From a virus (taxonomy: Duplodnaviria; Heunggongvirae; Uroviricota; Caudoviricetes), in the IMG/VR virus record IMGVR_UViG_2778261639_000013: a DNA stretch of 4,237 bases; one strand, 5' to 3'. This document shows, one piece after another, positions 1 through 3,000 of the stretch; position 1 is the first letter of the stretch, and each line of letters starts with the position of its first letter. Made by a program: the position numbers.

Positions 1-3000
1 GAAAAACGAGTATTTTTAGTCATTCTGTTTACCTCTTTCTCAGGGAGTTTAGTCTCCAGGATTCCCGGGGCGGTTCAGACTGGAGATTTATTGCTTCGGT
101 CTTGTGTGCTTTCGGAATGGCATCAGACATAAGTCCGATTACCTTCCAACGAAACGCTCCAGAAATAAACGCAAGCCAATCCCAAAAGAATCTGACGTAA
201 AAACCTTCAACTACACGGCTCACCTGTGGGATATCCGGTGGCTAAGACATTGTGCGAGGAAAACAAGGTGATTGACCAAAATCGAAGTTACGAACAAGAA
301 AGCGTCGAGCGAGCTTTAACGTGCGCTAACTGCGGTCAGAAGCTGCATGTGCTGGAAGTTCACGTGTGTGAGCACTGCTGCGCAGAGCTGATGAGCGATT
401 CGAATAGCTCGATGCACGAGGAAGAAGATGATGGCTAAACCAGCGCGAAGACGATGTAAAAACGATGAATGTCGGGAATGGTTTCACCCTGCATTCGCTA
501 ATCAGTGGTGGTGCTCTCCAGAGTGTGGAACCAAGATAGCACTCGAACGACGAAGCAAAGAACGCGAAAAAGCGGAAAAGGCAGAAAAGGCAGCAGAGAA
601 GAAACGACGACGAGAGGAGCAGAAACAGAACGATAAACTTAAGATTCAAAAACTCGCCTTAAAGCCCCGCAGTTACTGGATTAAACAAGCCCAACAAGCC
701 GTAAACGCCTTCATCAGAGAAAGAGACCGCGACTTACCATGTATCTCGTGCGGAACGCTCACGTCTGCTCAGTGGGATGCCGGACATTACCGGACAACTG
801 CTGCGGCACCTCAACTCCGATTTGATGAACGCAATATTCACAAGCAATGCGTGGTGTGCAACCAGCACAAAAGCGGAAATCTCGTTCCGTATCGCGTCGA
901 ACTGATTAGCCGCATCGGGCAGGAAGCAGTAGAGGAAATCGAATCAAACCATAACCGCTATCGCTGGACTGTCGAAGAGTGCAGGGCCATCAAGGCGGAG
1001 TATCAACAGAAACTTAAAAAACTGCGAAACAGCAGAAGTGAGGTTGCATGAATATCTACGAAAGAATTGATGGCAGCAAATACCGAAATATTTGGGTAGT
1101 TGGCGATCTGCACGGATGCTACACGAACCTGATGAAAAAACTGGAGACGATAGGATTCGACACCAAAAAAGACCTGCTTATCTCGGTGGGCGATTTGGTT
1201 GATCTCGGTACAGAGAACGTAGAATGCCTGGAATTAATCACATTCCCCTGGTTCATAGCTGTACGTGGAAACCATGAGCAAATGATGATTGATGGCTTAT
1301 CAGAGCGTGGAAACGTCAATCACTGGCTGCTTAATGGCGGTGGCTGGTTCTTTAATCTCGATTACGACAAAGAAATTCTGGCTAAAGCTCTTGCCCATAA
1401 AGCAGATGAACTTCCGTTAATCATCGAACTGGTGAGTAAAGGAAAAAAATATGTCATCTGCCACGCCGATTATCCTTGTGATAAATACGAGTTTGGAAAG
1501 CCAGTTGATCATCAGCAGGTAATCTGGAACCGCGAACGAATCAGCAACTCACAAGACGGGATCGTGAAAGAAATCAAAGGCGCGGACACGTTCATCTTTG
1601 GTCATACGCCAGCAGTGAAACCACTCAAATTTGCCAACCAGATGTATATCGATACTGGCGCAGTGTTCTGCGGAAACCTCACATTGATTCAGGTACAGGG
1701 AGAAGGCGCATGAGACTCGAAAGCGTAGCTAAATTTCATTCGCCAAAAAGCCCGATGATGAGCGACTCACTACTGGCCACAGTTTATTGGTTTTCGTAAC
1801 TGAGTCATTTTATTATTTTATTGCAACTTTTAATCTTTTATAGTGCGAAATAAATGGAGCTGGCATTCATTTCGCACTTTATGTTTTTGTTGGACTTATG
1901 TTATTTTGATTGAATTCAATTCAGTTAAAAAAAGAAGGTGATTGCTCCATTTATAAATGAATAGTCATCCCCTGTCTTGAATTCTGATGTTACTTTATTA
2001 AATGCTAGTGTGAAGGCTACAGGTGCATACCCAATTGTTGCGCCAACTTGATATTCATCAACAGTTTTGTTTAGCGATACTGTTGTTTGTTTCGTCTGTA
2101 TTGTTTTTCCTTCGAGAGTATAGTTGCGATTGACATCTCGTCTTTCCATACCTGCAAAAATCTTGTATTTGAATCCGCTTGTATCGGACATATGCATTAA
2201 ACCACGGGGAGCCAGCAGACCAAAGCCATTATCCGAATTGAAGGTTTTATCATTACCAATGGCAATGGTTGCGCCATATGCTACATATTGAAATAAGTTT
2301 CCAGTAACAGCAGAAACTTCAGGGTATAATCCAACATTAGCACCTAAAATATCCATACTTGGTGTCATGGATAGCATCCCTTTTACAGTATAACCGTAGC
2401 GATTCTCTATTTGATCATCCCATGCATGATATTTTTCTGCCCCAATAATCTCATGAGCTTTATTTTGTACTTTCTGACCGCCTGCGTCGGGGCCAACAAC
2501 ACCTATGTCAGTACCTAATCGATAGCGAATCCAGTCATTCGCAAGGGAGTTCCATTCAATACCAGTGTGAGTGTATGCACTAAAAGCTCTGTCTCCAGTT
2601 ACAGCTGTGTTGTGTCTTTTATTACTGCCTGATGGAGAGTAAATATCTTGCGCAATATGGAGAGATAATTGGCTCGAGTCTGAGATATCGTGGCTATATC
2701 CCAGAAATAAGCCTTGTGAGTAATCATCTCTGTTTTCATGTTTATTGCCATAAATATCATTAAGTATTGGTTGAAACTTCCCTGCATCATCATTTGCTAA
2801 TGATAATGCAAGGCTGTTCGCGATAGCTGAACACGTGGTAAATGACAGAGCAATAAAGACGCCAGCGATGACACTTTTTTTCATATGTTATTGTCTTCCT
2901 TTTTTTTGAATGGTGCGCGTATTTTACATACATGAGTTTGTAATACAAGGTGCGTAATCAATATGATGTTTTATAATTGCGTGAGACAATTGATTTATTC

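Follow-up and report, generated by a model that had tools for sequence, protein, structure and literature searches.

A conserved terminator-type hairpin beyond the 3' end of lpxR in a lambda/434-like prophage of pathogenic Escherichia coli, probably carried with the gene as foreign cargo

Several kinds of terminal hairpins have been described in lambdoid phages and their hosts. The nin region of phage lambda contains the terminators tR2-tR4, which are overridden by N, and the phage cassettes known as morons (the Hendrix/Juhala concept) consist of a promoter, a gene, and a terminator. At Rho-dependent 3' ends in Escherichia coli, stem-loops comparable to the one considered here typically lack U-tracts, according to one report (PMC13613805, citing Dar and Sorek 2018). 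In this study, we analyzed a palindrome in the IMG/VR virus record IMGVR_UViG_2778261639_000013, a stretch of 4,237 nucleotides (hereafter the window, meaning the whole of it) that spans the nin-to-Q region of a lambda/434-like prophage found in pathogenic E. coli. The palindrome lies downstream of the lipid A deacylase gene lpxR, which is antisense to the phage operon. It is a conserved and so far unannotated terminator-type hairpin of an ordinary kind, and we suggest, with a probability of about 0.6, that it is the transcript-end stem-loop of the lpxR unit and was brought into the prophage with lpxR as foreign cargo. The hairpin is structured, conserved among lpxR lineages, part of the lpxR cargo, and asymmetric between its two strands; a function at the RNA level, in one direction or both, is likely.

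The element had been noticed in an earlier note, made from the sequence alone, as a long-loop perfect palindrome with a T-rich tail. The perfect 10-bp inverted repeat with a 17-nt spacer on which that description was based is present as stated (AGTGCGAAAT, 1842-1851, and ATTTCGCACT, 1869-1878), and a perfect repeat of this geometry occurs only once in the window. The tail TTATGTTTTTGT (1879-1890) is also real, with T at 9 of its 12 positions. The label "long-loop" is inaccurate, however, because the pairing extends into the spacer and leaves a stem of 15 bp with a loop of only 7 nt. A repeat finder reported 18-nt arms that are 89% complementary and 7 nt apart. Four of the six basal stem pairs are G-C, and the upper half of the stem is AU-rich. 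The calculation of folding energy that the note had recommended gave a stable hairpin for both strands as isolated RNA. On the minus strand (lpxR sense), the stem is unbroken, with one G.U pair and an energy of −18.1 kcal/mol, and on the plus strand (phage sense), it has 14 pairs and one A.C mismatch, at the same stem position as the G.U pair of the minus strand, with an energy of −15.4 kcal/mol. The folding z-scores ranged from −4.7 to −6.8 for the minus strand and from −2.7 to −3.2 for the plus strand. In the genome of O157:H7 Sakai (NC_002695.2), the hairpin is located at about 897,808-897,844.

The hairpin belongs to the lpxR cargo and not to the phage backbone. Identity to lambda, which is shared with dozens of lambdoid phages, ends at position 1780, within codon 24 of a truncated Q gene (the Q stump), and homology of the phage 82 type (the rusA end, ylcG, and Q, as found in phage 82 and many lambdoid phages) restarts at about 3207-3212. 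The foreign cargo therefore covers about 1781-3206, and its GC content is 36%, compared with 47% for the backbone. The hairpin is thus not embedded in conserved phage backbone sequence, the placement that the earlier note had regarded as damaging to its proposals; an affiliation of the hairpin with lpxR itself was not among the options that the note considered. Among 5,426 complete E. coli genomes, a 150-nt segment containing the hairpin is carried by 620, and in all of these it is present as a single copy beside lpxR. Even the most divergent of the 620 copies (98.0% identity over 150 nt in BLAST) has all three of its differences within the 7-nt loop.

The stem also recurs after lpxR copies whose products have 85% and 80% protein identity. 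The former (L007, referred to below as the cdt-type copy) adjoins cdtABC and an insertion sequence (IS) element in a prophage remnant and retains part of the Q stump, and the latter (L009/L252) is found on E. coli plasmids of about 100 kb, near a PerA-like activator and IS fragments. The sequence shared with the cdt-type copy runs well past the hairpin and includes the Q stump; in the plasmid copy, the similarity to the window stops right after the stem. In the cdt-type and plasmid lineages, respectively, 29/30 and 27/30 stem positions are identical to those of the window, compared with 35/46 and 20/46 positions of the spacer between the lpxR stop codon and the hairpin, and the loops of the three lineages are unrelated (CCAGCTC, CTTATTT, and ATTTTACATT).

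Beyond these three lineages, more distant lpxR genes are found at Citrobacter- and Salmonella-like loci, at one Yersinia locus, and at two loci in other lambdoid phages. Six such lineages (68-73%) have unrelated hairpins 25-125 nt past the stop codon, several of them with clear U-tails in the sense orientation. Because the distant lineages carry hairpins at the same position, a 3' hairpin is a general feature of lpxR units, and the hairpin studied here is the version that belongs to the lpxR lineages of enterohemorrhagic E. coli (EHEC)/434, cdt, and plasmids. The terminators of the Salmonella/Citrobacter-like L013 and L006 and of L247, L248, and L249 resemble it in their position after the stop codon and in their hairpin form, but they have no sequence similarity to it, and several possess the sense U-tail that is missing from the EHEC/434-type hairpin. 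A scan of the genome collection with the LpxR protein gave a single locus, from Citrobacter, whose hairpin differs from this one. A pattern scan for the stem in viral and metagenome collections returned near-identical copies from E. coli prophages and unrelated chance matches, and no new diverged homologues.

In its general organization, the lpxR cargo resembles a moron, since it is a foreign, AT-rich, single-gene insert of deviant GC content that brings its own upstream region, has a hairpin at its 3' end, and is bounded by breakpoints in the lambdoid backbone at 1780/1781 and about 3207. A co-inherited hairpin is present at the place of the moron's own terminator, but it has no sense U-tract. 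The cargo also differs from a moron in that lpxR is antisense to the phage operon and the U-tail of the hairpin faces the phage direction.

lpxR was observed as recurrent mobile cargo in the nin-Q slot, beside cdtABC, on the PerA-like plasmids of about 100 kb, and in the late leader, antisense between Q/tR' and a SASA esterase gene, among other lambdoid phages (L249 and L247), in one of which it directly follows Q and tR'; in Shiga toxin (Stx) phages, the late-leader slot is where the stx genes sit. Some larger E. coli plasmids (H142-H145) have the PerA-like region and the greater part of lpxR in common with L009, and the match stops about 150 nt short of the lpxR stop codon, which suggests that the 3' ends of these lpxR genes have been cut off or replaced.

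The pairing itself favors the lpxR sense. Standard pairs make up 98.1% of the pair cells in this sense and 90.5% in the phage sense, and three of the wobble events favor the lpxR sense against one that favors the antisense. For the window, the cdt-type copy, and the plasmid copy, the folding energies are −18.1, −15.7, and −14.1 kcal/mol in the lpxR sense and −15.4, −10.8, and −13.6 kcal/mol in the phage sense, the former being better in all three lineages. We are mildly inclined toward a role of the hairpin in the formation or stabilization of the lpxR 3' end, in which it would mark and protect the 3' end of the lpxR mRNA. Both flanks of the stem are T-rich on the plus strand and A-rich on the minus strand, which leaves the latter without a U-tail. 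Because of this lack of a U-tract, the release of polymerase in the lpxR sense would probably be inefficient or factor-assisted, and the 3' end would be trimmed back to the stem.

A stable stem-loop without a U-tract, 46 nt past the lpxR stop codon, corresponds to what is described for Rho-dependent 3' ends. Like the terminal stem-loops treated in PMC13613805, it is located near the stop codon and has an energy similar to that of intrinsic terminators, and by this analogy, the lpxR-sense face would fit the Rho-dependent type of 3' stem-loop lacking a U-tract. The C/G ratio of the 46-nt spacer that precedes the stem is 2.67. The 100 nt downstream of the stem in the lpxR sense, however, differ from that type, being neither C-rich nor G-poor (C/G 0.84) and hence not like a Rho utilization (rut) site.

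UUAUGUUUUUGU comes directly after the stem on the plus strand. All three lineages have U at 9 of the 12 positions of this tail, and its first three U do not vary among them. The plus-strand stem is a stable stem-loop of the kind, usually with a GC-rich base, that characterizes intrinsic terminators. A scan for hairpins followed by U-tails detected three sites on the plus strand of the window, the known tR' among them, and none on the minus strand. Because the stem leads into UUAUGUUUUUGU, the hairpin would probably act as a modest Rho-independent terminator in the phage sense, and we regard termination of measurable efficiency on this strand as an even bet. The upstream layout of the prophage (cI-cro-cII-nin) aims transcription from pR at the hairpin, and rightward transcription must cross the hairpin and then lpxR in the antisense direction before it reaches the Q82-type gene. 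A terminator at this place would stop pR transcripts that have not been antiterminated, which cover cro, cII, nin, and the Q stump, before they entered lpxR in the antisense direction, and an N-modified polymerase would pass the hairpin toward the real Q gene 1.5 kb onward.

With a plus-strand stem and a U-rich tail between the early genes and Q, the element is similar to tR2-tR4, but it is not homologous to lambda, being located to the right of the breakpoint. It departs from intrinsic terminators in its AU-rich upper stem, its A.C mismatch, its sub-threshold score (given below), and its tail, which is expected from composition. It also recalls the bidirectional terminators of convergent genes, because a single hairpin lies between ninI-Q' and lpxR and, on the plasmid, between lpxR and a nuclease-domain gene. 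The symmetry of these terminators, with an A-tract on the 5' side of the stem and a U-tract on the 3' side, is missing, and the U-tail is found in one direction only. Between ninI and the hairpin, which the earlier note had placed between the 3' ends of ninI and lpxR, lies the Q stump.

A number of results weigh against the interpretation of the hairpin as a transcript-end structure. In the lpxR sense, the tail AUAAAAGAUUAA contains only 3 U in 12 positions (4 of 12 in each of the other two lineages), and the classical terminator score is about −59. T makes up 55% of the plus-strand flank, and a tail with 9 T in 12 positions thus has a probability of about 0.14 and is without independent significance. 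The score in this direction (−9 to −17) is also below the threshold, compared with +9 for tR', which served as an internal positive control in the terminator scoring. In the cdt-type copy, a second A.C mismatch lies beside the tail, to which the phage-sense energy of −10.8 kcal/mol of this copy corresponds. A rule-based terminator scan, which requires a loop of at most 8 nt, no internal mismatches, and at least three G-C pairs in a short stem, did not call the hairpin; in the curated phage 434 record, terminators are annotated elsewhere but none at this site; and a search of the whole window against Rfam 15, with a permissive threshold, gave no match at 1842-1890. Furthermore, 11 of the 15 stem pairs are invariant, and no compensatory double substitution occurs among the three lineages, so it is conservation and not covariation that argues for the structure. 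Even this conservation exceeds the coding-level identity only marginally (P = 0.04 and 0.13). The suggestion in the earlier note of a partial early terminator overridden by antitermination is therefore plausible with regard to the U-rich tail kept in three lineages and the place of the hairpin among the three plus-strand sites, and is weakened by the composition of the tail, the A.C mismatch, the sub-threshold score, and the lack of annotation in phage 434.

The best of the alternatives, although in our opinion an unlikely one, is that only the plus-strand function has been selected and that the fold in the lpxR sense is incidental. The hairpin would then be a Rho-independent terminator or insulator facing the lpxR 3' end, which blocks convergent transcription (phage early transcription here and a convergent gene on the plasmid) and serves as an extra N-overridden terminator upstream of Q, like those of the lambda nin region. 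This explanation would account for the restriction of the conserved U-rich tail, and of all hairpin-plus-U-tail sites, to the plus strand, whose T-rich flanks leave the minus strand without such a tail. It also agrees with the plasmid copy, in which the hairpin faces a convergent nuclease-domain pseudogene with its stop codon about 86 nt away, and with the lambdoid phage L249, in which the analogous lpxR hairpin likewise has a U-rich tail in the phage direction. However, the tail is explained by composition, the A.C mismatches fall exactly where the sense strand has G.U pairs, and the second mismatch of the cdt-type copy lies by the U-tract itself. In addition, the classical score and the phage 434 annotation give the plus strand no support as a terminator, and other lpxR lineages have sense-oriented terminators at this place. 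A broader proposal, also unlikely, is that lpxR carries a portable, inward-facing insulator with it into prophages, the cdt remnant, and plasmids. The U-tail, which faces against the direction of the gene, would halt convergent transcription and, in the prophage, would add an N-dependent checkpoint between the nin genes and Q. If this were true, the protection of a virulence gene would be coupled to the timing of phage antitermination.

Compared with these, it is improbable that the hairpin has no function, being a palindrome that arose by chance or hitch-hiked in AT-rich foreign DNA and was kept only because the three lineages diverged recently. Dinucleotide shuffling of the whole window produces a perfect 10-bp repeat with a spacer of 3-20 nt in 9% of cases, which, together with the absence of covariation, the marginal excess of stem conservation over coding identity, and the failure of the classical terminator score in both orientations, is what would be expected of such a palindrome. 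The corresponding frequency is only 0.6% in shuffles of the 211-nt intergenic region, however, and the minus-strand z-scores of the 15-bp stem are far from chance. The stems have also been kept while the loops and spacer were scrambled, across about 20% DNA divergence and three contexts, and every other lpxR lineage has a hairpin at the same position.

Weakest and very improbable is a site acting at the DNA level, that is, an operator bound by a dimeric protein or a recombination site ending a mobile lpxR cassette, both of which the earlier note had entertained: conservation of the lpxR unit reaches outward as far as the hairpin, after which phage and plasmid similarity vanishes, IS fragments flank the plasmid and cdt copies, and conserved arms around a variable center would also fit a two-half-site operator, but the comparison with related phages places the lambda/cargo junction 61 bp to the left, so that the hairpin lies inside the cargo edge and does not coincide with the homology breakpoint, the cdt-type copy shares sequence beyond the hairpin, there is one copy per genome without paired attC-like core sites, no integrase or regulator gene is associated with the hairpin across the three contexts, and arms that are really 15 bp long, with a freely varying 7-bp gap and non-Watson-Crick positions that are G.U in RNA, fit an RNA hairpin better than an operator.

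Other candidate identities were tried and rejected. For an integron attC site, the window offers a lone GTTRRRY at 1889, with no RYYYAAC/GTTRRRY pair within 40-150 nt on either strand, and no intI gene is present in the window/434, cdt, or plasmid contexts. The hairpin is not a dispersed repeat of the repetitive extragenic palindrome (REP), bacterial interspersed mosaic element (BIME), or miniature inverted-repeat transposable element (MITE) type, because exactly one site is present per genome in 620 of 620 carriers. As a small RNA (sRNA) gene, it would depend on upstream sigma-70-like hexamers (TTGCAA/TATAGT) with a poor 20-bp spacer and a start inside the stem, and there is no Rfam match; the PasD sRNAs, which a 2026 preprint ties to Q and LpxR neighborhoods, map to the late leader and not to the hairpin. 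A small protein encoded by a 32-codon open reading frame with a GTG start (1843-1941) is absent from the Sakai catalogue of intergenic small genes.

Three further pairings were noticed around the hairpin. An alternative pairing of 1850-1860, in the 5' arm and loop of the hairpin, with the last lpxR codons (I-N-G-A, 1944-1954; 11 nt, perfect) is missing in the cdt-type copy and in one loop variant, and this complementarity is probably due to chance because it is not conserved in them. The near-palindrome TGATTGAATTCAATTCA (1908-1924) abuts the lpxR stop codon and forms a small local stem in plus-strand folds. A second, weaker plus-strand hairpin with a T-tail is located at 1764-1820, where GACTCA (1764-1769) pairs with TGAGTC (1801-1806); its stem straddles the lambda/cargo junction, its tail TTTTATTATTT starts at 1808, and it would make a tandem pair with the main hairpin.

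The identity of the window to phage 434 (OL657226) is 98.5% and that to prophage Sp3 of O157:H7 Sakai is 99.7% over 140-4237, and its positions 78-4237 are 100% identical in prophages of bovine and porcine strains. The features are listed in the table. ninI is the final intact backbone gene ahead of the cargo. The start codon of the Q stump overlaps the ninI stop codon (ATGA), and about 24 of its initial codons are lambda-like. The curated phage 434 record lists the stump as an N-terminal fragment of Q, and RefSeq genomes have it as a partial antitermination protein. Because the working Q gene is of the phage 82 type and lies 1.5 kb past the lambda-type stump, the lpxR cargo and the swap of the Q module share one junction. 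lpxR is annotated under that name in phage 434 and in Sakai (ECs_0814). Relative to phage 434, the window has a tandem duplication of ATTTTATT at about 1808-1823, which is the sole intergenic length difference between the two.

Table. Features of the window around the lpxR hairpin
Feature	Position	Strand	Basis or remark
NinG	428-1051		Pfam
ninI, lambda-type serine/threonine phosphatase	1048-1713	+	Pfam Metallophos; 96% identity to lambda
Q stump, lambda-type Q antiterminator, 29 codons	1710-1799	+	Annotation and alignment
Outer cargo, AT-rich, 61 bp, from lambda breakpoint to hairpin	1781-1841		Alignment with 434 and 2B8
Hairpin, 15-bp stem (1842-1856 with 1864-1878), 7-nt loop (1857-1863)	1842-1878		Repeat finding and RNA folding
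T-rich tract TTATGTTTTTGTTGG, adjacent to stem on its 3' side	1879-1893	+	Sequence reading
lpxR 3' untranslated spacer, A-rich, 46 nt, from stop codon to hairpin	1879-1924	-	Sequence and alignment
lpxR, lipid A 3'-O-deacylase, 319 aa	1925-2884	-	Pfam LpxR, E=6.8e-40
lpxR upstream (promoter) region, AT-rich, right part of cargo	2885-3206		Homology search
ylcG	3221-3343		Precedes Q82-type gene
Q82-type antiterminator, functional Q	3358-4047	+	Pfam Phage_antiter_Q, E=1.1e-91
tR'-like canonical intrinsic terminator after Q	4093-4122	+	Two terminator scans; phage 434 annotation

Some observations concern the outer parts of the window. Positions 1-77 vary among strains that are otherwise identical, and 78-139 match a junction, also present in strain PE164, at which the 3' end of cII runs straight into a truncated ninE. 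O, P, ren, and ninB are deleted in the prophage, which is therefore probably replication-defective. At the other end, the late-leader region 4054-4123 gave the sole Rfam match of the window, a weak one to STnc240 (E=0.33), and positions 4094-4237 are shared, at 90% identity, with phage 2B8, whose Q is of the lambda type.

In EHEC, LpxR is a lipid A deacylase under the regulation of Ler and has been proposed as a vaccine antigen (PMC3891560, PMC6863877), and Term-seq, dRNA-seq, and RNA-seq of Sakai have been published (Sy et al. 2020, PMC7547250; GEO accession GSE143631). Knowledge of the lpxR transcript end, and of what protects the gene from antisense phage transcription, would aid the reading of lpxR expression in lysogens and during prophage induction, although this is a modest matter. 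The comparative result, that one lpxR unit occurs in a 434-type prophage, in a cdt remnant, and on large plasmids, may find wider use than the hairpin as such. The locus would, in addition, lend itself to testing whether an antisense cargo gene imposes an extra antitermination requirement on the expression of Q.

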